Virus record (IMG/VR): IMGVR_UViG_3300010938_000034
Origin: an uncultured virus (IMG/VR IMGVR_UViG_3300010938_000034)
Taxonomy: Duplodnaviria; Heunggongvirae; Uroviricota; Caudoviricetes
Direction: 5' to 3' (one strand)
Length of the DNA stretch: 20,000 nt
Shown here: one piece after another, positions 3,076-19,661 of the stretch
Layout of the letters: every line of letters starts with the position of its first letter
Position numbering within the stretch: position 1 is the first letter of the stretch
The notes under the pieces: model-generated
Told to the model about the DNA's origin: nothing
The model's input: only the letters and a program-made list of their open reading frames with translations
Databases searched by the model: none
Translations under genes and position numbers: made by a program

Positions 3076-3189
3076 ATGCCTTTTGGACAAGCTATTCCAG
3101 CAACCCCTGCTGACCCATTACAGGCTCAGGGATTTAGAACGCAGCGTGCGGAACTTCCAGAGGATTTGTGGCAACCTTTGTATGACCGT
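3076..3189 (+). CDS. putative major capsid protein, exon 1 (38 codons, MPFGQ...QPLYDR)
   Basis: AAGGAGGTG SD; the exon ends at U3189, which forms the U.G pair of intron helix P1; joins in frame to 4300. Confidence 0.85.
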
Positions 3190-4299
3190 AAACTTTATGC
3201 GGTCAATAAATTCCATGAAGTCGGAGAAAATCCAGAACGGATAACTCCGAGCCGAGCCTAAAAGGCAGGTGTAGAGACTAAAGTATGAAGGAACTTTCTC
3301 CAAAAAGAAGATCAAAAAAAATACTTTTAGGAACTTTAATGGGAGACTCTTCTTTATTTGAAACTTCCCATAAGAAAGCTATGTTTAAAACTACGCATGG
3401 AGCAGACCAGATCCACTATCTTATGTATAAATTGAATGCTCTCTATCCACTTCTGGGAAGTTTTAGAGTTTCCTTTACAGGTGGAGGAAGTTTTGAGAGA
3501 TGGAATGCAAAGAAAAGGATAACCGCTTGGTCGTTAAGCTCTACCTATCTTAAACATATCTACGATGATTTCTATTCCAATAAAATTAAGAAGGTAAGGC
3601 TTAACGTTTTAAGAAGAATGGATGAGTCTTCTTTGGCTTTCTGGTATATGGATGATGGTTGTTTAGCAAAATCAAATGGAAAGTTTTATGGAATCCATTT
3701 AAATACTCAAGGATTCGATCTTGAGGATCAAGAAACCATCATCAAATATTTTAGCGAAACATGGAAGATAAAATTTCATATTACTGAAGAAAGAAAAAAT
3801 AATAAAACCTATTACTACTTGAGAGCGAACAAGGAAGATTCAGAAAGATTTTTAAATCTAATTAATCCTTTTATTTGCAGTTCCATGCTCTATAAAGTAG
3901 ATCCTTCATACGAAAGAATGGAACATTCCGATAGGGATGAAGATATAGTCCGAACCTTGCAGGAATGCAAGGAGATTATCAGAAATGATAATCCTTCGGA
4001 AGATTCTAAGATTGAACTAAATGGAGAAATTTTAGAGGATATATCCAAAAAAATTGAGACCAAAGGCTATTTTGTTAAAGTGAATCACTGGAGGCAGAAA
4101 ACTCCAATCATTTTTTTTAGAGTAAGTGGGGACTATGATTCATTAGAAAAAATTAAAATGGTCTTTGGTGGATGCATTTACTTTAGTAGAGTTTGGATAT
4201 ATCAAGCTACAATAAATAGTTTCAAAGAAAAAATATTCCCAAAAATTTCTCCATTCCTGAAAACAAATAAATTTAAGAATCTTCCGATGTAACATATTG
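3190..4299 (+). ncRNA. group I self-splicing intron (1110 nt) with internal LAGLIDADG ORF
   Basis: P1 TGACCGT 3183-3189/GCGGTCA 3199-3205 with U.G at the splice site; P3 TTCCAT 3211-3216/ATGGAA 3918-3923; P4 TCGGAG 3221-3226/CTCCGA 3245-3250; P7 GACTA 3276-3280/TAGTC 3946-3950, preceded by J8/7 AAGATA; P8 3924-3939; P9 hairpins with GGAA and GAAA tetraloops (3955-3972, 3974-3993); terminal G4299; P10 TTTAT 3194-3198 pairs with exon-2 GTAAA. Confidence 0.93.
3285..4292 (+). CDS. intron-encoded LAGLIDADG homing endonuclease (two-motif type) with C-terminal extension
   Basis: Motifs ILLGTLMGDSSL and SLAFWYMDDGCL, followed by LNTQGF; the ORF lies wholly inside the intron. Confidence 0.88.
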   Translation: MKELSPKRRSKKILLGTLMGDSSLFETSHKKAMFKTTHGADQIHYLMYKLNALYPLLGSFRVSFTGGGSFERWNAKKRITAWSLSSTYLKHIYDDFYSNKIKKVRLNVLRRMDESSLAFWYMDDGCLAKSNGKFYGIHLNTQGFDLEDQETIIKYFSETWKIKFHITEERKNNKTYYYLRANKEDSERFLNLINPFICSSMLYKVDPSYERMEHSDRDEDIVRTLQECKEIIRNDNPSEDSKIELNGEILEDISKKIETKGYFVKVNHWRQKTPIIFFRVSGDYDSLEKIKMVFGGCIYFSRVWIYQATINSFKEKIFPKISPFLKTNKFKNLPM

Positions 4300-4848
4300 G
4301 TAAATTACCCCAATGCTGGGACTACGCAGCTGTCGTTTTTCTCAACTCCTATGGGTCAGTCGGCAACATTAATTACAGGTGTGGGTGCGGCAGCAACAAA
4401 AGTTAAGGATTATAGGGATACCAATATGCAGAATGCTAATGTTGTTCCTACAAAACTTTTTAAATTTGTGGGAATCAGCATTGCATTCATTAATCAGATG
4501 CCAGGAGATCCAAACAATGCTGCCGATAGAGATAGGGTAAGGAACAATGCCTATCTTAGATTCAGGATTGTAGACAAGGATATTCTTTATATTCCTTTAG
4601 TCTGCATTCCCGAAGTGAATCCATTAGTTGTTGGTTCAACAACTGTTACAGCAACAACCATTTTGGGTTCTGCTGGTGGAGGTGGGCAGAATGTTCCAAT
4701 GTATAAGCTACCTATCCCTGTAACTTTGAATCCTTACGAGAACTTTAGTGTAGATATTGTGCTGTCTGCTGCTGTTGCTCTTGCAAGCAGTTCTTATAGC
4801 ATGGATATCTACATGATACTCCAAGGATTCATGAGAAGGCCAACTTAA
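4300..4848 (+). CDS. putative major capsid protein, exon 2 (182 aa; spliced product 220 aa; probable single jelly-roll)
   Basis: No SD or ATG of its own; in-frame junction LYDR|VNYPNAGTTQLSFF; beta-strand-rich, with C-terminal LPIPVTLNPYENFSVDI...IYMILQG pattern; capsid role inferred from composition and gene context. Confidence 0.7.
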   Translation, partial: VNYPNAGTTQLSFFSTPMGQSATLITGVGAAATKVKDYRDTNMQNANVVPTKLFKFVGISIAFINQMPGDPNNAADRDRVRNNAYLRFRIVDKDILYIPLVCIPEVNPLVVGSTTVTATTILGSAGGGGQNVPMYKLPIPVTLNPYENFSVDIVLSAAVALASSSYSMDIYMILQGFMRRPT

Positions 4849-4909: not shown

Positions 4910-5707
4910 ATGGATATACCAAAAGAGGATTTAGCTTATATGGCAGGGTTTTTTGATGGTGAGGGATACATCTCCTTTTTTAAAGTAAGAGGAGAGGATT
5001 CAGTTGAATCTGGAATAACCCAAACTATTATGGAACCTTTGCTGTTATTTGCTAAATACTTCGATGGTAATATCCATAAAGGGAGAGTAACCCGAGGGGG
5101 ACTCCAGATATATAGGTTTAGAACCTCAAGTAAAGAGAATATTGGAGTCCTCCTTTCTTCCCTATTTCCTTATTTGATAGTTAAGAAATCGAAGGCTATG
5201 CTTGCGTTGAAATTTATTGGGAATGAGATACCTCAGGAGAGTGCGGATGAGAAGTTTCTTATTCCTTATATGGCTGGATTTTTTGATGCAGAAGGTTCGA
5301 TATCAGTAAGAGTTCGGAAAGAGGGCAAAAAAGTTAAAGTTTATGGTAATAAACTTCAACCATTAATTGTTATGCAACAGACCTGTATCGAACCGCTTCT
5401 TTTATTTAAAAAAACTTTTGATGGATATTTATATGAAAAAGGTTCAAAAACTCAAAAAGGTTCACCTATATTTTATTACAGACTTAACCTTTCGCAGATT
5501 CCCAGATTCTTTGAACTCCTTGGAAAGTATCTGATTGTTAAGCGTCAGCATGCAGAATTGGTTTTTAGACTTCAGCAGATAAAGTTGAAGCATAATGGTA
5601 AAGATCCAAAGATTCATGAGAAATGGGATATTGCGAAACAGATTATAGATTTGAATTCTAAGAAAGGGAATAAAGAGAATTGTAAAATTCTTCAACTTAT
5701 TAATTAA
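4910..5707 (+). CDS. free-standing double-motif LAGLIDADG homing endonuclease
   Basis: LAYMAGFFDGEGYI and IPYMAGFFDAEGSI motifs; own SD; lies between two intact genes with no intron core around it. Confidence 0.9.
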   Translation: MDIPKEDLAYMAGFFDGEGYISFFKVRGEDSVESGITQTIMEPLLLFAKYFDGNIHKGRVTRGGLQIYRFRTSSKENIGVLLSSLFPYLIVKKSKAMLALKFIGNEIPQESADEKFLIPYMAGFFDAEGSISVRVRKEGKKVKVYGNKLQPLIVMQQTCIEPLLLFKKTFDGYLYEKGSKTQKGSPIFYYRLNLSQIPRFFELLGKYLIVKRQHAELVFRLQQIKLKHNGKDPKIHEKWDIAKQIIDLNSKKGNKENCKILQLIN

Positions 5708-5733: not shown

Positions 5734-6510
5734 ATGGCATGGAGAGAATATTTTATATATGGAATTAATTTTAGTAGTATAACTGCAGGTGATGGAACAT
5801 TATTTACAAGAGATATTATTAGGATGGATAGTGATTCTGATTTTGAACTTCAAAAAATAGTAGCTATAGCAACAAGTAGAAACTTAAGGATAAGAATTAT
5901 TGATGATTCAACTGGAAGGTTTTTAATAAAACAATCAGCAAGTTTGAGGGATATGGCAGGAGGTAGTATTTTAACACCTTTTATATTACCAAGACCTTTT
6001 CAGATTCTAGCAGGCTCAACATTAACAATTGAAGTTGCAGATTCTTCTGGAAAAAGTAATTCTTTAAGGCTTTATTTTCATGGTGCAAAAATAAGACCAG
6101 GAGACCCGCCTTGGGGAGTTTATGATAATGTTACTAAAAGAATAGTTATGAAAAAGTATAAAGCTGTTTTACCATTTATTTACAATACGGGAGTCCAAAC
6201 AGTTTCAGGAAGCTTATCCACTTATACAAGAATTGAAGTTGATAATGATGCACATTTTTTAATTCAAAAAATAACAGGATTTTCATCTCAGGCTATTTTA
6301 CTTGATTTCAAAGATATGCCTAGAGATATTAGCTGGCAGAATATAGCTATCCATCACGAAGCAATTTTAGGTAGCGGAGACTTTCCTAATATTTTATTTG
6401 CTAACAGATTTATACCAAGAGGTTCGGTTATATCTATAAATGTCCAGAACTTATCTTCAAGTCAAGCTACCTTTGAAATAAATCTTATAGGAGTGAAATT
6501 ATATGAATAA
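5734..6510 (+). CDS. putative capsid-associated protein made of two tandem homologous beta-sandwich domains
   Basis: Internal repeat: YFIY..MDSDSDFELQKI..PFIL..GSTLTIEV..FHGAKI versus PFIY..VDNDAHFLIQKI..PNIL..GSVISINV..LIGVKL. Confidence 0.6.
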   Translation: MAWREYFIYGINFSSITAGDGTLFTRDIIRMDSDSDFELQKIVAIATSRNLRIRIIDDSTGRFLIKQSASLRDMAGGSILTPFILPRPFQILAGSTLTIEVADSSGKSNSLRLYFHGAKIRPGDPPWGVYDNVTKRIVMKKYKAVLPFIYNTGVQTVSGSLSTYTRIEVDNDAHFLIQKITGFSSQAILLDFKDMPRDISWQNIAIHHEAILGSGDFPNILFANRFIPRGSVISINVQNLSSSQATFEINLIGVKLYE

Positions 6511-7275: not shown

Positions 7276-8400
7276 ATGCCTATGAAACTGAAAAAGTTTA
7301 AATTTTTAATTACATTTATTTTAATAGGATTAAGTCTATTTTTAATTAGTATAGGTATAGCTCAAATTAACAAAGTGATTTTAGGAAATGTTGCTGTGCC
7401 TTCTTATTATACATTGTCTATTATCTTTAGTGGAACTGGGACTGGACAAGTTACTGCAACCCCAGGGGGAATTTTAACAAGTTCTGGTTATTTTGAATAT
7501 CCTATAAATACAAGTATAACCATAAGTGGTTTAGGAACTGGAGGTTCTATATTTCTTGGTTGGTCAGGTGCAGGATGTTCTGGAACTTCTGATTGTAATA
7601 TTACAATGGATAGTAATAAAACTGTTTATGCTAATTTTTGGGGGCCTCCATTGGGAAGTTACTTAATAGGATGGTATAGGTTTGATGAAGGAAGCGGTTC
7701 TACTGTTTATAATAGGGCAACAAATGGTTCATTAGGTGGAGGGTTATTACCAAATCTAAATGTAGTCCAGAATGATAATGTTTTTTGGACATTCCTTTCT
7801 GGTTTTGGTTCAACAAGAGATATAGTATTTGGTGCTGGAGATGGTTTAGTTGATTTTGCATGGGCTAAACCTAACAGGACAATTGGTGGTGCTAATAAAT
7901 CATGTTTTGGAATGTTTGTAAGACCAAAATCGTCAAATTACCCTTCTGGTTCTGGCGGTATGGTAATGCGGACGCAAGATAGTTATCTTGAAAGTGGTGT
8001 AGTTGGATACCATATTTCTAATGAAAATGAAGGAGGCTCTTCATCTCTGGATTTTGCAACTAATGTTATAGATTGGTCTCCAGGAACTTCAGAACTTAGA
8101 GGAAGATGGCATTTTCATTTTGTAAATAATAATGGTCAATGGTGGATAGTTAAACCAGAAGGAGATAGAGTTTTAGGAATGTCTGGTATATCTATGGTTC
8201 AGACTATTAATTTTCAATGGATTTTTGTTGGAGTTAGGCATTCCGATTCTACAACGCCTACTAAAGGATATTATCCTGGTGGAGTTTCTTATGGAGATTG
8301 GCTGATTTATAATCAAACAGCTTTAACTGATTCACAGTGGGCTGAAATTTATGATAATTTAAGAAGTAGATATGGAATGGCAGTTAGGTCAGGATGGTAA
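7276..8400 (+). CDS. signal-peptide protein with InlB-B-repeat-like domain and LamG/concanavalin-like domain; putative adhesin
   Basis: KLKKFK followed by a hydrophobic N-terminus; YTLSI..SGTGTGQVT...FLGWSGAGCSGT..C.ITMD.NKTVYANF; LIGWYRFDEGSGSTVYN ... IYNQTALTDSQWAEIY. Confidence 0.7.
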   Translation: MPMKLKKFKFLITFILIGLSLFLISIGIAQINKVILGNVAVPSYYTLSIIFSGTGTGQVTATPGGILTSSGYFEYPINTSITISGLGTGGSIFLGWSGAGCSGTSDCNITMDSNKTVYANFWGPPLGSYLIGWYRFDEGSGSTVYNRATNGSLGGGLLPNLNVVQNDNVFWTFLSGFGSTRDIVFGAGDGLVDFAWAKPNRTIGGANKSCFGMFVRPKSSNYPSGSGGMVMRTQDSYLESGVVGYHISNENEGGSSSLDFATNVIDWSPGTSELRGRWHFHFVNNNGQWWIVKPEGDRVLGMSGISMVQTINFQWIFVGVRHSDSTTPTKGYYPGGVSYGDWLIYNQTALTDSQWAEIYDNLRSRYGMAVRSGW

Positions 8401-8422
8401 AAATTAATGGAGTTAATTTGCA

Positions 8423-8569
8423 ATGAGTGTAAAATCAAGTTTTATTTCACTTTTACTTGTAATTTTATTTTTTATAAGCTTTTTTATAATTAGAAGCTTA
8501 ATTAATGAAAATTTCAATAATGGATTAAAAATAATAAAAATCCATGTGGAGGTAAAGAATGAAAATTAA
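8423..8569 (+). CDS. possible 48-aa membrane peptide (not in the ORF track)
   Basis: GGAG at 8409-8412; MSVKSSFISLLLVILFFISFFIIRS...; fills the gap between two genes. Confidence 0.35.
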   Translation: MSVKSSFISLLLVILFFISFFIIRSLINENFNNGLKIIKIHVEVKNEN

Positions 8570-9245
8570 AAAATTAATAAAAATAAGCTCAATTCTTTCT
8601 TTAACTGGATTAGTTATAGTTCTCTTTTCTATTGGATTAATTAAATCACAGGTTCAGGAGATAGGAGGACTTGCAGTTGCTCAATCAGCTACAAAATGGA
8701 ATTTTCTAAAAGATGCAGCTGTTGGAGATGATATAACTTACGGAATAGGAGCTTTTAGCTTATATCTTTATGATGGAAATAATTTTGATCGTGCAAGAGG
8801 GGATACAACTTATGGCTTAGATGTAGATGTAACAAGAATGCCTGCTATAGTTGGTGATAAAACTCCTTCGGATTCTTATTCAAATCCAACAGATGCTATT
8901 CCAAGCTGGTCTTTTATTGGAATTTGGAATGGCTCAACTTGGGATAGAGCAAAAGGAACTGGAGGAGCATTAAATGTTAGCACTACAACTTCATCTTCTA
9001 TTTCAACTGGGCAGGTTTCTGTTGGAACTTTAGCTACAATAATTGTTGCTTCAAACTCTTCAAGGCGGTCAGTGATTATAAGAAATCAAGGTGCAACTGA
9101 TATGTATATTGGAAATTCAGGAGTTACAACCTCTAATGGTCTTCTTATAAAAGCAGGTGAATCTATCTTTCTTGATAGAAATACAGCAGCAATATATGGA
9201 ATAGTTTCAAGTGGTTCAACTACTGCTGGTTATTTACAGGAGTAA
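8559..9245 (+). CDS. putative spike/structural protein with N-terminal signal or anchor and C-terminal beta-sandwich
   Basis: Basic then hydrophobic N-terminus; repeated YDGNNFDRARG / WNGSTWDRAKG; C-terminal RRSVIIRNQG..MYIG..GVT..NG..IKAGES domain. Confidence 0.6.
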   Translation: MKIKKLIKISSILSLTGLVIVLFSIGLIKSQVQEIGGLAVAQSATKWNFLKDAAVGDDITYGIGAFSLYLYDGNNFDRARGDTTYGLDVDVTRMPAIVGDKTPSDSYSNPTDAIPSWSFIGIWNGSTWDRAKGTGGALNVSTTTSSSISTGQVSVGTLATIIVASNSSRRSVIIRNQGATDMYIGNSGVTTSNGLLIKAGESIFLDRNTAAIYGIVSSGSTTAGYLQE

Positions 9246-9246
9246 A

Positions 9247-10347
9247 ATGAAAAAGGTATATACATTATTGGCTATTTTATTTTTATTATGGGGAAGTATA
9301 GCACTTTGCTCTGGATTTCTGCACGGAAATTTTGGAATCTGGATAAGAGAGAAAATGATTTGGTCAGCTGGAGGAGGTGGTGGAGGAGGATGTCAAGGAG
9401 GAGAAAATTGGCTTACGGGTTGGGGTTATAGGAAATGTGTTACATTAAGTAGGTCATCTGGAGCTGTTACAAATTATCAGATGAGGCTCAAAGTTGGTGA
9501 AAGCTCTGGCTCTTCTGGTTATGATGTTCATTGTAACGGACATATCCTTGCAGATTTTAATGATTTAAGATTCACAAAAGCAGATGGTGCTACCCTGTTA
9601 GATTACTGGATTGAATCAATTACTGGGACATCTCCGAATAGACTTGCAACGGTTTGGATTGAATTTGATTCAATTGGAACTTCAGATACAACATTTTATA
9701 TGTATTATGGGAATGCCAGTGCAAGCTCTGTTAGTGATGGAGATGCTACATTTATTTTCTTTGATGATTTTTTGGGAAGTTCTATAGATTTGACTAAATG
9801 GGATGTAACGGGATCTGATGGTATAACTGTAAGTGGTGGAGTGGTTATTTTGACTTCAACAGCAACAGTCCCTCAGGTTAGACTATTGTCTAAGAATGCT
9901 GTGCTTCAAGATAATCAAACGGCCTATAGGGCAAGAATGAAAGTGAATTCAGTAAATCAAGATACTGGAGAAGCTGGATCTGGGGGATTTTTCGATTCAA
10001 ATAATTGTATTATATTTGATGTGAATCATAGAAATTTGACTGACCGATATAAATATGTCAATCGTTTGGCTGGAAATTCTACCAATTTAGACATTATAGG
10101 GACTATTTATGCTGACACATTTTTTACTTTTGATTTGATAAGGATAGGAAAGGCTCGTTGGTTACTGAATGATGGCAATATGGTAGAGAATACAAGCAAT
10201 TATTATACGGGAGATACTAAAATTAGATTTAGGTCTGATTATTATACAGCGAATCAGATATTGACTATTGATTGGGTATTTGCTCGAAAGTATAATTCCC
10301 CAGAACCAACTTGGGGAACTTGGGGAGCAGAACAAACACCACCATAA
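9247..10347 (+). CDS. DUF2341-like domain protein with signal peptide; putative adhesin/receptor-binding protein
   Basis: Start reassigned to ATG 9247 (AGGAG SD, MKKVYTLLAIL); poly-Gly linker; WGYRK..TNYQ..DFNDLRFT..LLDYWIE..YMYYGN..TFIFFDDF pattern typical of DUF2341. Confidence 0.75.
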   Translation: MKKVYTLLAILFLLWGSIALCSGFLHGNFGIWIREKMIWSAGGGGGGGCQGGENWLTGWGYRKCVTLSRSSGAVTNYQMRLKVGESSGSSGYDVHCNGHILADFNDLRFTKADGATLLDYWIESITGTSPNRLATVWIEFDSIGTSDTTFYMYYGNASASSVSDGDATFIFFDDFLGSSIDLTKWDVTGSDGITVSGGVVILTSTATVPQVRLLSKNAVLQDNQTAYRARMKVNSVNQDTGEAGSGGFFDSNNCIIFDVNHRNLTDRYKYVNRLAGNSTNLDIIGTIYADTFFTFDLIRIGKARWLLNDGNMVENTSNYYTGDTKIRFRSDYYTANQILTIDWVFARKYNSPEPTWGTWGAEQTPP

Positions 10348-10727: not shown

Positions 10728-11021
10728 ATGCAGGAAGTCAATTTTGGACAATATGCCTTACCAGTGATTCTAATGGTTATTTTGAGTTTTATCTACAAAG
10801 TTTTTGGAGAAGGAGATGGTTCAGGAGCTATTTCAAATCGAGCAAAACCTATAATTGCTATATGTGTTGGAATGGCTTTAGGAATTATTGGTTTATTTTA
10901 TAATGCGGTTGAGTTGACATTTAAAAACTTTGTAGATTATTTGCTTTATGGATTTATGACAGGTTGCTCAGCTGTTGGATTATGGGAAGGTTTTAGAGCA
11001 ACTATAAATCCACAAAAATAA
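10728..11021 (+). CDS. holin-like membrane protein (3 hydrophobic segments)
   Basis: AGGAGG SD spaced for ATG 10728; three predicted TM helices in about 97 aa; adjacent to a lipoprotein gene. Confidence 0.55.
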   Translation: MQEVNFGQYALPVILMVILSFIYKVFGEGDGSGAISNRAKPIIAICVGMALGIIGLFYNAVELTFKNFVDYLLYGFMTGCSAVGLWEGFRATINPQK

Positions 11022-11033
11022 GGAGGTTAAAAT

Positions 11034-11399
11034 ATGAAAAGAAAGATTTTTATACCGATAATGTTGGCAATGTTTTTAATTTCATGTGCAACGATTCAAG
11101 ATCAGTGGAATAAGCTTACTCCTGATGAGAAAGCAAGAATCATTATTAATGACCTTCAAACACAGCTGTCTAATTTATGGGATGTAGGGAAAGCTTATGT
11201 GGAGGCTAATCCAAAGTATCTTGATGAATGGAAAAATAAAATTGTCCCTATGTTTGATACAGCTAATAAGAATATTAAAGTAGCCATAACACTATCCAAA
11301 TTGAATCAGATAACTCCTGATATGGTTTATGAAAATATTCAACCTGCTATTAATTCAATTATTGTTATGCTTGTCCAGATTGGGGCAATTAAAAAATAA
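11034..11399 (+). CDS. lipoprotein, helical (possible spanin-like lysis accessory)
   Basis: MKRK, hydrophobic core, then lipobox LISC. Confidence 0.7.
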   Translation: MKRKIFIPIMLAMFLISCATIQDQWNKLTPDEKARIIINDLQTQLSNLWDVGKAYVEANPKYLDEWKNKIVPMFDTANKNIKVAITLSKLNQITPDMVYENIQPAINSIIVMLVQIGAIKK

Positions 11400-11414
11400 A
11401 GGGAGGTTATTTGT

Positions 11415-11594
11415 ATGAATAACAAAGATATAAATATTGAATCTGTTTTAATTCTTATAAATGGTTTAATTTCTATAGCCTTTAATATCTGGTCTTCAGT
11501 TAGACAGATAAAGGGAGAGGAAGCTATACCATCTTGGGAAGAGATTTTAAGCAAAAATATCCAACTACAAACTAAAATAGATGCTGAAAAATGA
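11415..11594 (+). CDS. 59-aa protein with hydrophobic N-terminal helix (not in the ORF track)
   Basis: GGGAGG SD at 11401; MNNKDINIESVLILINGLISIAFNIWSSVRQ...DAEK*. Confidence 0.7.
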   Translation: MNNKDINIESVLILINGLISIAFNIWSSVRQIKGEEAIPSWEEILSKNIQLQTKIDAEK

Positions 11595-11749
11595 ATGAGA
11601 AGAACTCATTTTTTAAAGATATAGATTGGGATGCTCTTTTTTATGGTTTTGTTGGTTCACTTTTAGCTGGGATAACTGTTTATTATTTTTATCAGAGAAA
11701 AAATTATGATCATAAAGTTGAAGGAGAAGAAGATGAATTATTTGATTGA
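11591..11749 (+). CDS. 52-aa single-TM protein with acidic tail (not in the ORF track)
   Basis: ATGA overlap with the upstream stop; MNEKNSFFKDIDWDALFYGFVGSLLAGITVYYFYQRK...DELFD*. Confidence 0.6.
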   Translation: MNEKNSFFKDIDWDALFYGFVGSLLAGITVYYFYQRKNYDHKVEGEEDELFD

Positions 11750-12482: not shown

Positions 12483-13499
12483 ATGTTTTTAGGTAATATA
12501 CCGCAGCAAAATTTAGGACAATTTTCATTACCAAAAGAACCTGTTGATTTGAGTATTTCAGTAGCTAAATTAGGTGTTACAGCAGGTCAGATAGGAGCAC
12601 AATATGCAGGTGGAGTTGCTTTAGGGTTAACAACTACGGCTTGGATGGGAATAGGAGTTGCACTTGCTGCTTTAGGAGCTATATATGGAATTGTTAAAGC
12701 AAAATGGAAAAAGGAAAGAGCAAAAGAAAAAGCAAGAATGGCCTTTTATAGGGCTATAAATCAAATAGGAATTGAATTAATAGACAAGGTTTATGGAATG
12801 AAGATTCCTGGATGGAAGTTTCCTGAAGTTTTAGAAGATCCAAGTAATGAGTATTACCAATTAGGTCTTTTATATTATAATTGGTCAAAAACTGACCGTA
12901 AAAATAGTTATGAAATAGCAAGTTGGATTAAATCAAAAGGACTTGAGCCAGCAAGATTTATAGGAGCTGATAATGTTCCAGAAGGTTTGTCTTTAGATTA
13001 CGATGTTGATTATATTGCTGATCCTGAAAAATACTTAATTGGAAAAGAAGCTCTTGAAGCTATGGGATATGATAAGTCTCAATTTGTTAATTTACCTGTT
13101 CAGTATTTTGTAAGACTTATTGATATAATACTTGAAATTCCTCATGCTTTTATGGAACTTCAAGCACAAATGATAAAGGCAGATTTAGAATATCACTTAA
13201 GAGAAGGAGGATTTGATCCTAAAGTAATTTTTGATAAAGTTATGCCTTCTGAAACTATACCTCCTACAATGTATGAAATTACTGTATCTCCTGAAACAAA
13301 GCAAGTGGTAATACCAAAAGAAGCTATTTCTTTAGAACCTGTTAAGCCAGAAGAAGTGATTCCGACTGGAAAAGAAGTTAAACCTTTGGAAGAAAAAGGA
13401 GAGACTATTCAAATTGCAGGTCTATCGGTTAATAAAAGTTTGTTAATTTTATTAGGAGTAGGTTTATTAATTGCTATGCTAAAAAAGAAGGAGTTATAG
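12483..13499 (+). CDS. membrane protein with N-proximal TM and C-terminal anchor
   Basis: Gly/Ala-rich hydrophobic segment at about aa 40-72; Pro/Glu-rich linker; ends IAGL...LLILLGVGLLIAMLKKKEL. Confidence 0.7.
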   Translation: MFLGNIPQQNLGQFSLPKEPVDLSISVAKLGVTAGQIGAQYAGGVALGLTTTAWMGIGVALAALGAIYGIVKAKWKKERAKEKARMAFYRAINQIGIELIDKVYGMKIPGWKFPEVLEDPSNEYYQLGLLYYNWSKTDRKNSYEIASWIKSKGLEPARFIGADNVPEGLSLDYDVDYIADPEKYLIGKEALEAMGYDKSQFVNLPVQYFVRLIDIILEIPHAFMELQAQMIKADLEYHLREGGFDPKVIFDKVMPSETIPPTMYEITVSPETKQVVIPKEAISLEPVKPEEVIPTGKEVKPLEEKGETIQIAGLSVNKSLLILLGVGLLIAMLKKKEL

Positions 13500-13500
13500 C

Positions 13501-13854
13501 ATGTTTTATGGTTTTTGGGATATAGCATTACCTGTTTTAAATACTGCTATTTCAACAGGAGGTCAAGTATATAGTGCTGTTATAAATAAGGAAGCTGCAA
13601 AAACTGTTGCGGAAATACAAGCTCAAACTGCTCAGGCTCAGTTAGCCACACAGGAGAGATTAGCTCAATTACAACTTGAAGCTTTAAAATCTTCAAATCT
13701 TAATACAGCAAGCTCTTCTGCTTATAGACCTACAACAGAATATGTTCCAGAACCAACTGTTGCTGGACTGGTAACTGGGCAGGTTGGAGGATTTCCAGTG
13801 ATTTATTTATTGTTAGGAGGATTATTATTATTTTTATTAATTAAAAAGGACTAA
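13501..13854 (+). CDS. tail-anchored virion membrane protein (paralog of 16314..16715)
   Basis: Starts MFYGFWD; Ala/Gln coiled coil; ends GGFPVIYLLLGGLLLFLLIKKD. Confidence 0.7.
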   Translation: MFYGFWDIALPVLNTAISTGGQVYSAVINKEAAKTVAEIQAQTAQAQLATQERLAQLQLEALKSSNLNTASSSAYRPTTEYVPEPTVAGLVTGQVGGFPVIYLLLGGLLLFLLIKKD

Positions 13855-13870
13855 ATTAAAGGAGGTTAAA

Positions 13871-14950
13871 ATGAGGACATTTGGTAGAATTCCTTCATTA
13901 AGAGAATTAAGAATGGCACTATCGGGTTTTGGCATACAAGAAGCACCTGTTTTAACTCAATCTTATATACCACCTGGAGCTATGTATGCAAGTTTTCCTG
14001 GATTTGAGGGCAAATGGAATGTATATGCAATGAATAGACCAATTGGAACAATGGAATTCTGGAGTGAAGGAGGTCAGTTAAAAGGAAAGTTTTCTTTTGC
14101 ATCTGATCCATTATTAGATATTATAAGTTCTTATGTATTAAGTTGGAGAAAAATCCCTATTCCTTCATTTGAAAGTGAAATTCCAATGTCTAATCTTAAT
14201 GTTGATTTTAATGCAAATAAAATAACTTTTAGATTATTAGGAAGACCATATCGTATGGATCAAAATGAAATTTGGGGATTATTCTTAGGAGAAGCTTCTA
14301 TAGCTGCTAATCAAATAATAGGTAGTTTAACCTTATATGGAATTCTTACTGGATCTGCTTCTCCTAGAGCTGAAGAACCATATGTAACAGAAAATCCAGG
14401 AGAGCCTAGATACCGTGCATATAAAAATTTATTATTTACTGTGATTGCACCTGAATTTACTAATAGTCCTTTTTTAATACAACATTTTGTAGGTGGATAT
14501 GACCTTGAGTATCAAGTGCTTTTGGGAGCATATCAATATTACATTATTAATTTTAATGCAATAAAAGAAATGGCTCCAGCTTTTACTCCAGCTTTAGTGG
14601 TTGTAAGGTCTCCTACACCTGGAGTAACAATGGAAGTTACAGTTCCTGTAGTAACTTTGCCTGAAAAAACTGAAGAGGTAAAACAAGAATTACCCACTCC
14701 CGAACCTACTCCACAGCCTACAAGCGTAAATCCTCAACCAACAGTTGCAGAAACAGTTCCTGAAGAACCCATTGTAGAAATAAAACCAAAAGAAGAATTG
14801 GTTTCACCACCTCCAACTCCATTAGCAGCTGGATTTCCTAAGTGGGCTTGGTTACTGCTTTTAGGTATAGGGGCTTTTATTCTTTTTAAACCTAAAAAAG
14901 CTCAAGAAATTTTAAAGGTAAAGCCTAAAAGAAGAAAAAAGGAGGTTTAA
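13871..14950 (+). CDS. tail-anchored protein with Pro/Glu/Thr stalk
   Basis: LSGFG near the N-terminus; PTPEPTPQP linker; AAGFPKWAWLLLLGIGAFILFKPKK. Confidence 0.7.
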   Translation: MRTFGRIPSLRELRMALSGFGIQEAPVLTQSYIPPGAMYASFPGFEGKWNVYAMNRPIGTMEFWSEGGQLKGKFSFASDPLLDIISSYVLSWRKIPIPSFESEIPMSNLNVDFNANKITFRLLGRPYRMDQNEIWGLFLGEASIAANQIIGSLTLYGILTGSASPRAEEPYVTENPGEPRYRAYKNLLFTVIAPEFTNSPFLIQHFVGGYDLEYQVLLGAYQYYIINFNAIKEMAPAFTPALVVVRSPTPGVTMEVTVPVVTLPEKTEEVKQELPTPEPTPQPTSVNPQPTVAETVPEEPIVEIKPKEELVSPPPTPLAAGFPKWAWLLLLGIGAFILFKPKKAQEILKVKPKRRKKEV

Positions 14951-14953
14951 TAT

Positions 14954-15172
14954 ATGTTTTATGGATTTGGACAAACTGCTCAACAGGAATTAGAAGAAAT
15001 TTTAAAAGCTTCTTGTCCTCCAAAAGAAGAGGAAAAAGCTTCTATATGGGAAGCTAAGCTTGCTGGATTTCCAGTGCTTTTATGGATTCTACTTGGAGGG
15101 GCTTTTTTGTATTTCTTAAGTAAAAAAGAACCAATTGAAATGAAGGAGGTGTCCGAAAGTGTTTCAAGATAA
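14954..15172 (+). CDS. small tail-anchored protein
   Basis: Starts MFYGFGQ; LAGFPVLLWILLGGAFLYFLSKK. Confidence 0.7.
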   Translation: MFYGFGQTAQQELEEILKASCPPKEEEKASIWEAKLAGFPVLLWILLGGAFLYFLSKKEPIEMKEVSESVSR

Positions 15173-15800
15173 TAAAGAAGTTAAAGATTTTTATGTTCCA
15201 GGTGAAACTTATATTCTTGATGATTCTTCTGTTGTTTTTGAGGAAATGCCAGAAGAATATTTAATGAGCAAAAAATTACTACCTGAATGGGCATATGCTG
15301 AATGGAATTTACCTAAAGCAGTAAATGGAGAAATAGGAGATGGAGCTGAAATAAGTCCATATAGACCATGGAGAAGAAGAGCCAAACAAGTAATATTTGA
15401 AAAATTAAAAATGATGCCTGAACAATCTCAGATTTATTTAAAACCAGGAGAATCGGAAGAGGTTTCAGAAATGCCTCAACCTCCTACTACTTTTCTTGAT
15501 GGAGTTCCAAATTTTGAAGAGGTTCCTCAATTCTTAGGAAATTTCTCATTTGGTCAAGTATCATCCGAAAGAGGAATTTGGGGAGAATTAGTATCTGCTT
15601 TAACAACTGCTGGAATGCAAATTCTTGAAGCTGAAAAGAAAAAATATGAAGCAGAAATAGAAGCTTATAAAAAGACTGTAACTCCAACACAAGCTCCCAA
15701 AGCAGCAGGAGAAACTACAATGAGCAAAATTTTACCTTTTGCTCTAATTGGGGGTATTTTATATTTAGTTTTGAAATCCCAAAAGAAGACAAAAAGATGA
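15159..15800 (+). CDS. tail-anchored protein with acidic N-terminal region
   Basis: GTG start after AAGGAGGTG; internal FLGNFSFGQ followed by an amphipathic helix; ends ILPFALIGGILYLVLKSQKKTKR. Confidence 0.7.
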   Translation: MFQDNKEVKDFYVPGETYILDDSSVVFEEMPEEYLMSKKLLPEWAYAEWNLPKAVNGEIGDGAEISPYRPWRRRAKQVIFEKLKMMPEQSQIYLKPGESEEVSEMPQPPTTFLDGVPNFEEVPQFLGNFSFGQVSSERGIWGELVSALTTAGMQILEAEKKKYEAEIEAYKKTVTPTQAPKAAGETTMSKILPFALIGGILYLVLKSQKKTKR

Positions 15801-16012
15801 AAAAACTGGTTTATAAAAGATTTAGGCCAAAACCTTTAATCCCTTTTGAGGATATTAATAAAGTTTTCTGGAATATAAGAGATATAGCTGATACTTATTT
15901 AAATATAAGATATCCCGAAGTGCCTGATCCTGATTTATTCATTGCAGAAATAGAAGATCAAATAGATAAATACTATACTATATATAGAAAGGAGGAAGAC
16001 CTATATGAATAA
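15797..16012 (+). CDS. hypothetical protein
   Basis: ATGA-coupled to the upstream gene; overlaps the downstream start. Confidence 0.6.
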   Translation: MKKLVYKRFRPKPLIPFEDINKVFWNIRDIADTYLNIRYPEVPDPDLFIAEIEDQIDKYYTIYRKEEDLYE

Positions 16013-16280
16013 CCAATTTAGTCAAGACTGGATGGAGTTTTATTATGATGAGAATTGGGGAGTTCCAGATTATCCATTCTCAATCAAAGAATTCCAAGCT
16101 CCAACTGCTCAGGAAGCTCAACCGACTGTTGCTCAGCCTTTACCAGCAGAAGCACAAGTTCCAGCTGTTAGTCAAGCTCCAGCTGAACTTAAAGCTTCTA
16201 TTTTGGAGAAAATACCTACTTGGGGATGGATTGCCATTGGAATAGGGGCATTTTTATTTTTTACAAGAAAAAAAAGATAA
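16005..16280 (+). CDS. small tail-anchored protein with Ala/Pro/Gln linker
   Basis: AGGAGG SD; ends IPTWGWIAIGIGAFLFFTRKKR. Confidence 0.7.
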   Translation: MNNQFSQDWMEFYYDENWGVPDYPFSIKEFQAPTAQEAQPTVAQPLPAEAQVPAVSQAPAELKASILEKIPTWGWIAIGIGAFLFFTRKKR

Positions 16281-16313
16281 TTTAATCTAAAGTTTTTTAA
16301 GGAGGTGATATAG

Positions 16314-16715
16314 ATGTTTTATGGATTAGGCCAGTATGAAGAATATTCACCTGATATGTGGAAAGGTTCTATATATGACTTAAGTTCTGTATCTACAGGA
16401 GCTCAAAGCTCTTCATCTCAAGCTCTTCCTGTTTTACAAAGTTTAATTAGTTCAGCAGGAGTTGTTTTGGGAAAATATTTTGAATTATCAGCGGTAAAGG
16501 AACAGGCCGAAGCTGCTAAAACTCAAGCAGAAATTTTGGCTAAATTAAGAACTCCAACTACGACTACAGCAATTCAACCAGCAGCAATAACTCCAACAAC
16601 AAAGATAGCTGGGGTTGAATGGCCTATACTAGCTATAATTGGGTTTGGGATTTTTGTAGTGCTTAGAGGCAGAGAAAGAAAGGAATCTGTAAGAAGAAAA
16701 AGAAGGAAAAAATAA
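16314..16715 (+). CDS. tail-anchored virion membrane protein (paralog of 13501..13854)
   Basis: Starts MFYGLGQ; ALPVL..IS..G / EAAKTQAEI shared with 13501; IAGVEWPILAIIGFGIFVVLR followed by a basic tail. Confidence 0.7.
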   Translation: MFYGLGQYEEYSPDMWKGSIYDLSSVSTGAQSSSSQALPVLQSLISSAGVVLGKYFELSAVKEQAEAAKTQAEILAKLRTPTTTTAIQPAAITPTTKIAGVEWPILAIIGFGIFVVLRGRERKESVRRKRRKK

Positions 16716-17029
16716 TGAATACAACACTAATTATTCTAAGTGTTGCAGGATGGATACTGTTAGGTATAATAATTCCTGTTTTTAGGTATATAATTAAAAA
16801 ATTATATGAAGAAATTGACTCTTTAAAAAATTGGAAGAATTCTATGGAGGAAGAAATAATGATAAAAACAGAGCATAATCAATTATGTAATCAAATACAA
16901 AAAGAAAATATTCAATTAATTTTTAATAAAATTGAACATATGATGAAAATACATAAAGAGTGGTTAGAAGAACGTTTGGGTAGATTAGAATCTGATATGA
17001 AATTATATGTTCAAAAGCAAAAGGAGTAA
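16715..17029 (+). CDS. N-terminal TM, coiled-coil protein
   Basis: TAATG coupling; hydrophobic aa 5-24, then heptad-like helices. Confidence 0.65.
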   Translation: MNTTLIILSVAGWILLGIIIPVFRYIIKKLYEEIDSLKNWKNSMEEEIMIKTEHNQLCNQIQKENIQLIFNKIEHMMKIHKEWLEERLGRLESDMKLYVQKQKE

Positions 17030-17032
17030 ATC

Positions 17033-17257
17033 ATGCAAATTAAAAAAGAGGATGATATTATTGAAATGGAGAAGGATGATAATGGAACTTATCATCCTAT
17101 AACTCCATATAGGAGACCAAAAATAGAAGTCCATATGCATAATGAGATAAAGACACCACCTGTATATCAATTTTTTGAAGGTTTCATAATCGGATTAGAA
17201 GCAATTGAAAGATTCTTAAGAGTAAGTCAGAGAATTACAAAGGATTGGTTTAAATAA
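17033..17257 (+). CDS. hypothetical protein
   Basis: AAGGAG SD; TAATG-coupled to the next gene. Confidence 0.6.
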   Translation: MQIKKEDDIIEMEKDDNGTYHPITPYRRPKIEVHMHNEIKTPPVYQFFEGFIIGLEAIERFLRVSQRITKDWFK

Positions 17258-17841
17258 TGACTGAATGGGCTGATAAAAATAAAATATTTATTTCTTTACC
17301 AACTGAACAAATATTAGCTATTACTGCATATGGAGAAGCACGTTCAGAAGGTGGAGAAGGAATGATGGCTGTTCTCAATGTAATTAAAAATAGAACTAAA
17401 GATTTAAATAGATTTGCAGATAGTGAGATATTAAGTTTAACTGGAAGCCCTTATCATGCTGTTATTCTAAAACCTTATCAATTTTCGATGTATAATCCTG
17501 GAACTTATTCAAGAGAAATAGCTGAAGATTTAGCAAATAATTTTTATGTAAAGCTTTTAAGTGATAATGAACTTCAAATTGCTTATAAATTAAGTGTTAT
17601 GCTTTTAACAGGAGATTTAGTAGACAATACAGGAGGAGCAGACCATTACCATTCGGTTACTGTTAAACCTTCATGGTCAAGCGAATTTCAAAAAACTGCA
17701 CAAATCGGGAACCATATATTTTATGCTTCGGTTCCAGGATTAGGAGTTACACTTGCAGGTTTAACTGAAAGTCCTATTTCTTTGGTTTTATGGTTAGGTT
17801 TAATAGTTGGAATTACATATAGATATCTAAAGAAAAAATAA
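17257..17841 (+). CDS. SleB/Hydrolase_2-family cell wall hydrolase with C-terminal membrane anchor
   Basis: TAYGEARSEG..GMMAVLNVIKNR, PYQFS, TGGADHYH, PSW and IGNHIFY motifs; ends LAGL...LVLWLGLIVGITYRYLKKK. Confidence 0.9.
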   Translation: MTEWADKNKIFISLPTEQILAITAYGEARSEGGEGMMAVLNVIKNRTKDLNRFADSEILSLTGSPYHAVILKPYQFSMYNPGTYSREIAEDLANNFYVKLLSDNELQIAYKLSVMLLTGDLVDNTGGADHYHSVTVKPSWSSEFQKTAQIGNHIFYASVPGLGVTLAGLTESPISLVLWLGLIVGITYRYLKKK

Positions 17842-17856
17842 AAGGAGGTTATAATT

Positions 17857-18042
17857 ATGGGAAAATTAATATTAGGCTTTGTTTTAGGATTTATCTTATC
17901 AGATGCTATTACAAATAAGTATCCTAAAGCACAGCAATTCAAAATTTCTCCTAAAACTTTGGAAAATCTTTTTCCTCCTATCGAAACAAAACAGCAAGTA
18001 AAAGGGTTTGAAAATGTCCCAAGATTATTAGTAAATTTTTAA
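17857..18042 (+). CDS. small protein with hydrophobic N-terminus
   Basis: AAGGAGG SD; MGKLILGFVLGFILS. Confidence 0.6.
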   Translation: MGKLILGFVLGFILSDAITNKYPKAQQFKISPKTLENLFPPIETKQQVKGFENVPRLLVNF

Positions 18043-18055
18043 GGAGGTGATAATT

Positions 18056-18508
18056 ATGTTTTTTGGAGCTGTTCCTCTTTTAATGAAAGGATCTAAAGGT
18101 GAAGCAGTTAGACAGTTGCAAGAAAATTTAATTGCATTAGGATTTCAATTACCAAAATATGGAGCAGATGGAATATTTGGAGATGAAACAGAAAAAGCAG
18201 TTAAAGATTTTCAATACACATGGGGACTTACTGTTGATGGAATTGCAGGCCCCGAAACAATGGCGGCAATGGATCAGGCATTAAACCTATTAGCTGAAGG
18301 ATTATGGAATCCATCCCTAGAACCATTACAGTATGTTCCTAGTGTAACTCCAACAGTTACTCCTTCAGCCATTCCAGCACAATTACCCAGTATTGTTCAA
18401 GCTATACCTCAAAAAATAGCTGGAATTGATAAAAAATGGTTTATAATTGGTGGAGCTGCTGTAGTAGGAGTAATGCTTTTATTTAAGCCCAAAAAGAAAA
18501 GACAATAA
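18056..18508 (+). CDS. peptidoglycan-binding domain (PG_binding_1-like) protein with C-terminal anchor
   Basis: SD spacing favours ATG 18056 (MFFGAVP); LMKGSKGEAVRQLQENL..LGF...DGIFGDETEKAVKDFQ...GLTVDGIAGPET; ends IAGIDKKWFIIGGAAVVGVMLLFKPKKKRQ. Confidence 0.9.
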   Translation: MFFGAVPLLMKGSKGEAVRQLQENLIALGFQLPKYGADGIFGDETEKAVKDFQYTWGLTVDGIAGPETMAAMDQALNLLAEGLWNPSLEPLQYVPSVTPTVTPSAIPAQLPSIVQAIPQKIAGIDKKWFIIGGAAVVGVMLLFKPKKKRQ

Positions 18509-19295: not shown

Positions 19296-19661
19296 ATGAA
19301 TAAATTCAGAATTAAAATATGTCCATTAGCCGAAAAAGACCATAAAAAAGACCAAAGAGCTTATGCCCATTGGGGTCATTATCCAAAAACGATATGTATT
19401 TCACAATCAATATATAGACTTCCCAAACAGGTTTCATTAGCACTTCTTCTTCATGAATTAGGTCATGCTTTATGTGATGGAGAGTATGAAGAAGAAGCTA
19501 ATAAAACAATTTACAATCTGTTTAAAATAAAAATAAAATATGCTCCAGAAACTCCATGGGGAAAAAGATTACAATATATCTTAAGCCCAGAAGTTCCTAA
19601 AGTCATTAATATCCTTAAAAAATTTATTTCTGAATCTTCTTTGAAACCTTTTCTGCAATAG
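19296..19661 (+). CDS. small zincin-like metallopeptidase
   Basis: LLLHELGHAL (HExxH) with downstream EEEAN acidic helix. Confidence 0.65.
   Translation: MNKFRIKICPLAEKDHKKDQRAYAHWGHYPKTICISQSIYRLPKQVSLALLLHELGHALCDGEYEEEANKTIYNLFKIKIKYAPETPWGKRLQYILSPEVPKVINILKKFISESSLKPFLQ

Follow-up and report, generated by a model that had tools for sequence, protein, structure and literature searches.

A Met-aromatic N-terminal tag on predicted tail-anchored proteins in a lineage of large, apparently tailless bacterial viruses

What purpose might be served by a short peptide placed at the N-terminus of a whole series of viral membrane proteins that are otherwise unlike one another? The question is raised by a 20,000-nucleotide stretch of DNA (hereafter, the window) from the uncultured virus IMGVR_UViG_3300010938_000034, in which several genes between positions 12483 and 18508 open with nearly the same residues, most fully MFYG[FL]GQ. 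The earlier note on this DNA, made by a model from the sequence alone, described a shared N-proximal motif resembling an adenain-type maturation site, and proposed a common processing or capsid-docking peptide that, together with a C-terminal anchor, would bridge capsid and membrane. Here we report that the tag is specific to predicted tail-anchored (TA) proteins and that relatives of the virus conserve it at the level of amino acids. We read it, with a probability of roughly 45%, as a short, family-independent address or capsid-docking label and not as an adenovirus-type cutting site.

Every string on which the earlier note was built is present where it was placed (genes are named here by the position of their first nucleotide): MFYGFGQ (14954), MFYGLGQ (16314), MFYGFWD (13501), MFLGN..NLGQ (12483), MFFGA (18056), ALSGFG (13871), an internal FLGNFSFGQ (15159), NFSGWW (11940), LAGLGA and PLGA (2060), and the MPFGQ start of a capsid-like protein (3076). 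The three genes said to begin alike do so: ATGTTTTATGG occurs exactly 3 times in the 20 kb, at the starts of 13501, 14954 and 16314 only, and when up to one mismatch is allowed there are 7 matches against 1.04 expected, a number reached by none of 200 shuffles. A protein was classed as TA when a 17-residue window of hydropathy ≥1.7 lay within its last 45 residues and was followed by Lys/Arg, so that topology is predicted throughout. Nine of the 40 window gene models, the set used for all Pfam, PHROGs and motif counts in the window, fall in this class (12483, 13501, 13871, 14954, 15159, 16005, 16314, 17257 and 18056). Phe is found at residue 2 in 6 of these 9 and in 0 of the 31 others (Fisher p 2.2e-5), none of which has Tyr there either. 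The six Met-Phe starters read MFLGN, MFYGFWD, MFYGFGQ, MFQ (from a GTG at 15159), MFYGLGQ and MFFGA. Of the occurrences of the tripeptide [FL]GQ, 5 fall within the first 15 residues of a protein (600 positions) and one in the other 5520 positions (binomial p 1.1e-7), its N-terminal carriers being the capsid-like protein at 3076, a holin-like protein at 10728, and 12483, 14954 and 16314. The longer F.G[FL]G is found twice where 0.2 would be expected, and 21 of 1000 shuffles reach 2. By these comparisons with shuffled sequences and with non-TA gene models, the N-terminal signature is real and not due to chance. What stands of the shared motif is this signature, on unrelated proteins with a common C-terminal anchor; the strict heptad is limited to two window proteins, and the statistical membership of NFSGWW and of LAGLGA/PLGA in the same motif was never established.

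By sequence comparison, the tagged proteins are not simple paralogues. When all were compared with all by BLAST, it was for the most part the C-terminal anchor modules that proved similar. The middles of 13501 and 16314 gave one weaker match (E 0.002), and what 14954 shares with 16314 is limited to residues 1-7. Their middles differ, with a PG_binding_1 domain in 18056 and no family recognised by Pfam or PHROGs in the rest. We observed that the nine TA proteins end in a common module, made of [IL]AG[FLVI] or GGFP, a Gly-rich transmembrane helix and a Lys/Arg tail, the counterpart of which in a clade of relatives with 63% GC is GG[VIF]PWW followed by a helix. This three-part layout recalls, by analogy, sortase/exosortase-type sorting signals.

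The nine genes, which like all genes of the window lie on the + strand, can be described in order. The first (12483-13499) encodes 338 residues, with N-terminus MFLGNIPQQNLGQ, a central hydrophobic segment and a C-terminal IAGLS..TM..KKKEL end (TM, transmembrane helix). It weakly matches (E 2.7e-6) a protein of locus L029 (18104-19129) that starts MAFAQEPK, L029 being the closest relative, syntenic with the window and with a capsid protein 78% identical; a word-based homologue search returned 12483 itself alone, and a search of the ESM Atlas gave no match at ≥0.9. The second (13501-13854, 117 residues) opens with the 11 nucleotides ATGTTTTATGG and starts MFYGFWD; BLAST outside the window gives no match at E 1e-3, and the gene at the corresponding place in L029 (20114) starts MFSDWINL. 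The third (13871-14950, 359 residues) is untagged and has a basic leader, MRTFGRIPSLRELRMALSGFG, preceding an acidic stretch; ALSGFG forms its residues 16-21, and its L029 homologue starts MFPESILRKRYLGELG. In the fourth (14954-15172, 72 residues), MFYGFGQ is followed by an acidic helix-like stretch. The fifth (15159-15800, 213 residues) has a GTG start with GGAGG 9 nucleotides upstream, reads Met-Phe-Gln, and carries FLGNFSFGQ internally. Residues 113-221 of its 222-residue homologue in locus L034 match only the C-terminal 109 residues of 15159, an alignment position that fits what a full-length start at 15159 predicts.

The sixth gene (16005-16280, 91 residues) is untagged (MNNQFSQ) and has a C-terminal anchor similar to the one in 13871 (E 6e-8). 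The seventh (16314-16715, 133 residues) starts MFYGLGQYEEY..DMWKGSIY; its homologue in L034 (11023-11700) has FRGFGQY..DMWKGSIY at residues 37-43, after a 36-residue basic leader that itself begins Met-Phe. An NPSRRR in this leader shows the same Asn-Pro/Arg punctuation as the arginine-rich core protein described below. The last two genes encode an untagged Hydrolase_2 cell-wall hydrolase (17257-17841, 194 residues, start MTEWADK; Pfam E 4.9e-16) and a PG_binding_1 peptidoglycan-binding protein (18056-18508, 150 residues, start MFFGA; Pfam E 2.1e-19). The latter opens with ATGTTTTTTGG, one mismatch away from the 11-mer, and its ATG sits 9 nucleotides inside a GTG open reading frame (ORF) at 18047.

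Does the signature hold in other viruses? Single-protein locus searches of viral contigs with 13871 and with the capsid-like protein 5734 returned no relatives. An exhaustive HMMER search with 5734 gave 213 representatives at E ≤ 1e-3, and an alignment of the close matches fetched 3 viral and 16 metagenomic loci. Relatives were therefore obtained via the capsid-like protein and not via the motif. One simple ORF rule was applied to 22 loci, yielding 453 ORFs of at least 45 residues in 386 clusters at 70% identity, and only starts with a good Shine-Dalgarno/ATG score were kept. Clusters holding window proteins were then excluded, together with all L029 proteins, which leaves an independent set of 39 TA proteins and 222 others. 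In this set, residue 2 is Phe or Tyr in 14/39 TA proteins compared to 6/222 others (odds ratio 20, p 5.9e-9), [FLMYW]G is found within residues 2-12 in 14/39 compared to 33/222 (p 0.003), and Lys/Arg is depleted from residues 2-8, being present there in 16/39 compared to 150/222 (p 0.002). Several of the Phe/Tyr starters counted as others are TA proteins barely below threshold. Overall, residue 2 of the TA proteins is Phe in 15 and Tyr in 6 of 52, while non-TA proteins mostly begin MK, MA or MR. Codon 2 is TTT in the AT-rich relatives and TTC in L028, L043, L044 and the high-GC contig G001, which encodes the start of its tag as ATGTTCTATGGACTGGGCCAA. As the codons vary while the amino acids are kept, selection acts at the protein level, and the 11 identical nucleotides of ATGTTTTATGG are explained by AT-rich codon choice for M-F-Y-G. 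A trait of the kind known from the capsid targeting sequence (CTS) of T4, namely a short N-terminal peptide on unrelated proteins, is present here on presumed virion proteins.

The heptad itself behaves differently from its first two residues. A scan of viral contigs for the back-translated heptad gave 18 loci, and in only one of these (L006, which is G001) does the match open an ORF that has a C-terminal anchor; the 17 others, internal or chance matches, were set aside. G001 is a contig of 68,222 bp with 63% GC. Its 548-residue TA protein starts MFYGLGQ, ends in a transmembrane helix and MRR, and opens a run in which two further TA genes follow. G001 has a layout like that of the window, with an Asn-Pro/Arg-rich protein followed by small capsid-like genes, and its small capsid-like protein aligns with that of the window clade at 25% identity; no significant similarity to window proteins was found except for a small HExxH protein, and Pfam recognised pentapeptide repeats only among 17 G001 proteins. 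The family of the 548-residue protein holds 15 members including itself, 14 of which were aligned: an N-proximal GLG is kept in at least 70% of the rows, lying within the first 13 residues in most homologues and, in P0007, P0009 and P0010, behind a conserved N-extension of 55-65 residues (as G[LF].GLG). P0014, outside the alignment, starts MFLGN, as does 12483 in the window. Closer to the window, the L029 ortholog of 14954 is 66% identical and starts MFYNNFGK in place of MFYGFGQ, so that Met-Phe alone of the tag is kept. The heptad is therefore poorly conserved among close relatives yet recurs at a distance, at the G001 start and inside L034 11023-11700. The signature seems to have two layers, one being a robust start of TA proteins with Met, an aromatic residue and no charge, the other a looser aromatic-x-G-[FLM]-G(Q), either at the start or behind a leader.

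The proteins to which the tag might be addressed are the capsid proteins, and these are modelled with jelly-roll folds. The gene at 5734-6510 encodes a capsid-like protein of 258 residues, modelled with two jelly-roll barrels (predicted local distance difference test (pLDDT) 95.2). In an exhaustive structural search, its best matches were HHIV-2 6h82_b (Z 9.8, root-mean-square deviation 4.2, 115 aligned), STIV A223 (4ind; Z 8.8), HCIV-1 (Z 8.3) and P23-77 VP17 (Z 7.7). These are capsid or vertex proteins of internal-membrane viruses, and non-viral beta-sandwiches come close behind (Z 8.2 to 7.8). With the same protein, Foldseek listed among its matches PM2 P2 and the capsid protein of STIV, with E values of 2-5e-4 and low TM-scores. 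The second, small capsid-like protein is encoded by two exons (3076-3186 and 4300-4848, ending MRRPT), the junctions of which were deduced from alignment with its uninterrupted L029 counterpart (8462-9115). Its model is a jelly roll whose best structural match, Z 7.4, is within the range that the tool calls common, with a disordered N-terminal arm (residues 1-25, pLDDT < 50). It is on this flexible arm, which starts MPFGQ, that FGQ lies, and M..FGQ is kept in 6 of 9 orthologs from the window's clade. The intervening sequence (3187-4299) contains a LAGLIDADG endonuclease ORF (3285-4292; Pfam LAGLIDADG_2, E 3.7e-28) and, at 3794-3972, a group I intron match of 34.9 bits, short of the gathering score of 50. 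A free-standing gene for a second LAGLIDADG endonuclease lies between the capsid genes (4910-5707), at the same place as in L029 (9177-9974).

We propose that these viruses encode a battery of single-pass proteins that would be held in a membrane by their C-terminal end, many of which, though otherwise unrelated, are marked at the other end by Met and an aromatic residue (Phe more often than Tyr), then small Gly-/Gln-rich residues without basic charge, a mark that in this window is elaborated to MFYG[FL]GQ. The C-terminal helix would sit in the viral membrane, while the N-terminal end and the domain behind it would touch the shell from inside, or else a partner in assembly. Such a contact would recruit TA proteins into the particle, including the peptidoglycan-degrading ones needed for entry, and would tie the shell to the membrane. 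Because the arm of the small capsid protein carries a similar FGQ, the tags may occupy the same binding site as that arm. The membrane content of the virion, the topology of the proteins, the docking and the role in assembly are all part of what we infer. The bridge between capsid and membrane, as the earlier note had it, is in keeping with the FGQ of the capsid arm and with a solved precedent, PM2 P3 and NO16 GP18 (see below), docking itself being proposed by analogy with these.

Several observations weigh against a dedicated address label. Three of the nine window TA proteins (13871, 16005 and 17257) are untagged, and, within the 63% GC clade, the majority of the G001 protein's orthologs begin MR.. 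and retain nothing of the tag but an N-proximal GLG. In the independent set, neither GQ nor G.G within residues 2-14 is significantly enriched (each in 3/39 TA proteins and 9/222 others). Of 2100 degenerate, position-free patterns, the best was [LFM][GAS][QN] (15/56 compared to 17/265, p 4.1e-5), which just misses the Bonferroni limit (2.4e-5), and in the independent set none passes Bonferroni. TA N-termini resemble the capsid arm to a small degree (mean score 13.3 compared to 11.4, p 1e-4), with composition as a confounder. Both classifications also depend on simple rules, TA status on a self-made hydropathy rule and start codons on a Shine-Dalgarno/ATG rule. A prediction of a complex between three capsid-like chains and the 72-residue tagged protein, run without controls, scored 0.03 (mark 0.32) and is uninformative either way.

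Of the alternatives, one that has to be weighed is the cutting site from which the earlier note started. Neither a resemblance to adenain sites nor the adenain-type reading of the tag is supported by the sequences. The strict consensus, (M/I/L)-X-G-G|X or (M/I/L)-X-G-X|G, occurs 16 times in the 40 window proteins compared to 14.1 ± 3.6 in 1000 shuffles, many of the matches falling in transmembrane segments. MFYG[FL]G has Phe, not Met/Ile/Leu, at P4; MFYGFG, MFYGLG, MFLGN, MFFGA and MPFGQ do not fit, and LSGF|G (13871) and LAGL|G (2060) are the sole two flagged strings that do. The earlier note correctly saw no recognisable protease in the window: neither Peptidase_C5/adenain nor a Ulp1-like or any other protease family was found by Pfam and PHROGs among the 40 proteins. 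A looser version, in which a viral protease would cut at aromatic/hydrophobic-x-G-[FLM]-G and remove leaders, as adenain or T4 gp21 do, is nonetheless worth considering, though we regard it as unlikely. The motif can be internal, as after the 36-residue basic leader of L034 11023-11700 and the N-extensions of P0007, P0009 and P0010, and 13871 and its L029 homologue have basic leaders of 16-21 residues ending in G[FL]G or LGELG.

For such a cleavage, the most plausible enzyme would be a Cys-His-Asp enzyme of transglutaminase fold found in relatives. Transglut_core (PF01841) proteins are encoded in L029 (682-1128, 29.9 bits) and L030 (26.6 bits), above the gathering score of 23, and the triad C76, H109 and D125 is invariant in the 4 sequences aligned. 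By BLAST, homologues lie directly before TA genes in 6 of 22 loci (L026, L029, L030, L036, L038 and L044), three of which are near-identical viruses. The gene is outside the window; by synteny with L029, it should lie about 4.1-4.6 kb upstream. It was not found by BLAST in L027 and L028, although each has 10 kb upstream. In two loci (L026 1797-3326 and L036 1793-3322), a large insertion stands immediately before the codon of the catalytic Cys; it is matched by Pfam Intein_splicing at E 1.3e-6, below the gathering score, and is probably an active-site intein. The enzyme may be a maturation protease, and it may equally be a cell-wall endopeptidase of the entry machinery, since in G001 it is itself tail-anchored, like the wall-degrading proteins of the window. 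Pseudomurein endoisopeptidases of methanogen phages have a transglutaminase fold.

Failing that enzyme, the cleavage could be assigned to a small HELGH (HExxH) protein (19296-19661, 121 residues), which carries the sole protease-like motif in the window and is, by that motif, a candidate zinc protease. It has homologues of 121-146 residues in G001 (10988-11428, E 3.5e-4) and L024 (16948-17346, E 3.6e-8), the alignment keeps C, H, H, C and HELGH, and the gene is found downstream of membrane-protein genes in both the low-GC and the high-GC clade. Searches for its family gave Pfam M78 at E 0.063, PDB profile matches at E 0.1 to 1.8 and nothing in NCBIfam. What argues against cleavage, whichever enzyme is considered, is the position of the motif in the window, where it begins at residue 2 and a cut would take off only 4-6 residues, along with its absence from close relatives such as L029. 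A bolder form of the same idea, to which we would give no better odds, is that the tag is the substrate mark of a new maturation system, in which the Cys-His-Asp enzyme would trim aromatic-x-G-[FLM]-G(Q), or cross-link via the Gln, on capsid, core and membrane proteins bearing the peptide at or near the N-terminus. If so, this would be a bacterial-virus counterpart of adenovirus maturation, arisen with a different enzyme fold.

An alternative that we also hold to be improbable is that the tag has no dedicated function, being a by-product of common ancestry, through the shuffling of end modules among genes for membrane proteins, or of a general need of biogenesis: post-translational membrane insertion might, for example, require an uncharged N-terminal tail with a retained initiator Met. 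What proves robust across relatives is limited to residue 2 and a lack of basic residues; the anchors at the C-terminal end are modules of clear homology, and N-terminal modules may have spread alike; and the MK/MA/MR bias of non-TA proteins accounts for part of the contrast. Set against this are the predominance at residue 2 of Phe/Tyr in particular, and not of just any uncharged residue, across genomes of 33-63% GC, the presence of FGQ on a capsid protein, which is not a membrane protein, and the heptad kept between viruses without other detectable protein similarity.

Far less probable is a cross-linking tag, in which the Gln of MFYG[FL]GQ, MFGQ and MPFGQ would be the acyl donor for a viral transglutaminase joining capsid and membrane proteins covalently, for instance to the Lys-rich C-terminal tails. 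An enzyme of suitable fold, its triad intact, is conserved in relatives; the Gly motif is followed by Gln in several tags as well as on the capsid arm; the TA proteins have Lys-rich ends; and donor Gln residues of transglutaminases often lie in flexible termini. However, GQ is replaced by GK in L029, Gln within residues 3-8 is not significantly enriched in the independent set (12/39 TA proteins compared to 48/222 others, p 0.22), most prokaryotic members of the transglutaminase fold are thought to be hydrolases, and the Lys tails would lie across the membrane from the tags if the predicted topology is right. Finally, a signal at the nucleotide level, with ATGTTTTATGG as a translation-initiation or regulatory element, is nearly refuted: the exact 11-mer in three genes and the one-base variant in a fourth would suit it, but in relatives the same amino acids are encoded by TTC, TAC and a variety of Gly codons, as in the G001 start given above.

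In what kind of virus would an address label of this type operate? The window is part of a 65,027-bp contig, has a GC content of about 33%, and shows GGAGG ahead of nearly every start codon. Besides the endonucleases and wall-degrading proteins already described, Pfam and PHROGs recognise few families in it: a DUF2341 protein within 7276-10347, an SLT lytic transglycosylase (11940, containing NFSGWW), and a holin-like membrane protein (10728-11021, 97 residues, start MQEVNFGQ; PHROG holin families, E 7e-7), the N-terminus of which is identical in L029. In this 20-kb apparent structural module, no terminase, packaging ATPase, portal or tail family was found by the same searches, and no Rfam match reached the gathering score. 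Ahead of the capsid genes, 2060-2974 encodes an arginine-rich protein of 304 residues with NP..RRRR blocks, a hydrophobic region and a tail with LAGLGAFP and PLGAYP. The same layout precedes the capsid genes in relatives (G001 60213-61370, and L026-L030), [LFV]GA[FY]P repeats forming the tail of these arginine-rich proteins; a direct comparison of the window and G001 proteins was not significant (E 0.55), and they could not be aligned by BLAST. We also noted three proteins within 7276-10347, one of them the DUF2341 protein, that have an N-terminal hydrophobic anchor and beta-rich domains and are possibly surface spikes or receptor-binding proteins. At 11591-11749, a 52-residue membrane protein contains LFYGFVG, an internal copy of the FYGF string that opens its hydrophobic segment. 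Because of the capsid folds, the TA proteins (at least nine), the membrane-anchored wall-degrading enzymes and the lack of tail genes, a tailless particle with an internal membrane is probably the most economical reading. The window would then come from a lineage, as yet undescribed, of large bacterial viruses that apparently have no tail and whose capsid proteins are jelly rolls. Its contigs span 39-77 kb, and it is widespread and uncultured, as the 213 representative homologues of 5734 alone indicate.

Little is understood, even in PRD1 and PM2, of how internal-membrane viruses select their membrane proteins and fasten the vesicle to the shell. A portable N-terminal label would provide a concrete, mutable handle on both steps. 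If the label proves sufficient for incorporation, it could load foreign proteins into particles, as the T4 CTS does; if it is instead a protease or transglutaminase site, bacterial viruses would turn out to have a new chemistry of maturation. Address labels shared at the N-terminus are known already, and so are minor capsid proteins anchored in a membrane. What is new is a family-independent Met-aromatic/Gly tag on a battery of TA proteins in a large, undescribed, tailless virus lineage, and no description of the lineage or the tag was found in the literature searched, which consisted mostly of abstracts, without supplements.

Three known systems come close. Adenovirus, the source of the earlier comparison, processes pVI, pVII, pVIII, pIIIa and pre-mu with adenain at (M/I/L)xGG|x and (M/I/L)xGx|G. 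It resembles the present virus in that several virion proteins of a jelly-roll virus carry short glycine-centred motifs close to their ends, and in that the capsid genes lie next to a gene for an arginine-rich core protein; it differs in that the window tags have Phe at P4 and in that the relatives' candidate enzyme, Transglut_core, belongs to another fold family. In T4, according to the part of the source available, the CTS is an N-terminal peptide of about 10 residues, carried by divergent virion proteins and sufficient for particle loading (PMC9026906). Like the window tag, it is a short N-terminal peptide common to otherwise divergent proteins. However, its address is the scaffolding core of a head with HK97 fold, and the gp21 protease cuts it off, whereas the window tag would serve a jelly-roll shell, is carried by predicted membrane proteins, and has a conserved core of just Met-aromatic and small residues.

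A third likeness, in architecture, is to the membrane-anchored minor capsid proteins of the Vinavirales. In the portion of the source available, PM2 P3 and NO16 GP18 are described as small proteins with a predicted C-terminal transmembrane helix and an N-terminal domain seated in pockets of the capsid protein, on the inside of the jelly-roll shell; in PM2, the C-terminal end reaches into the membrane (PMC13552765). The window TA proteins are like them in being small and in having, by hydropathy, a single C-terminal helix in all nine cases, and each of PM2 P3, P8 and gp j terminates, as the window proteins do, with a transmembrane helix and then Lys/Arg. No sequence similarity accompanies this: when PM2 P3, P4, P5, P6, P7, P8, gp j and P2 were compared with the 40 window proteins, the best BLASTP E value was 0.09, and phmmer returned no match. 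The PM2 and PRD1 membrane proteins differ in that only 1 of the 31 listed (PM2 gp l) starts Met-Phe, and for PM2 P3 and NO16 GP18 no shared N-terminal tag is mentioned in the portion of the text available. PM2 differs also in scale, its whole genome being about 10 kb, compared to at least nine predicted TA proteins in a single window of a 65-kb contig.

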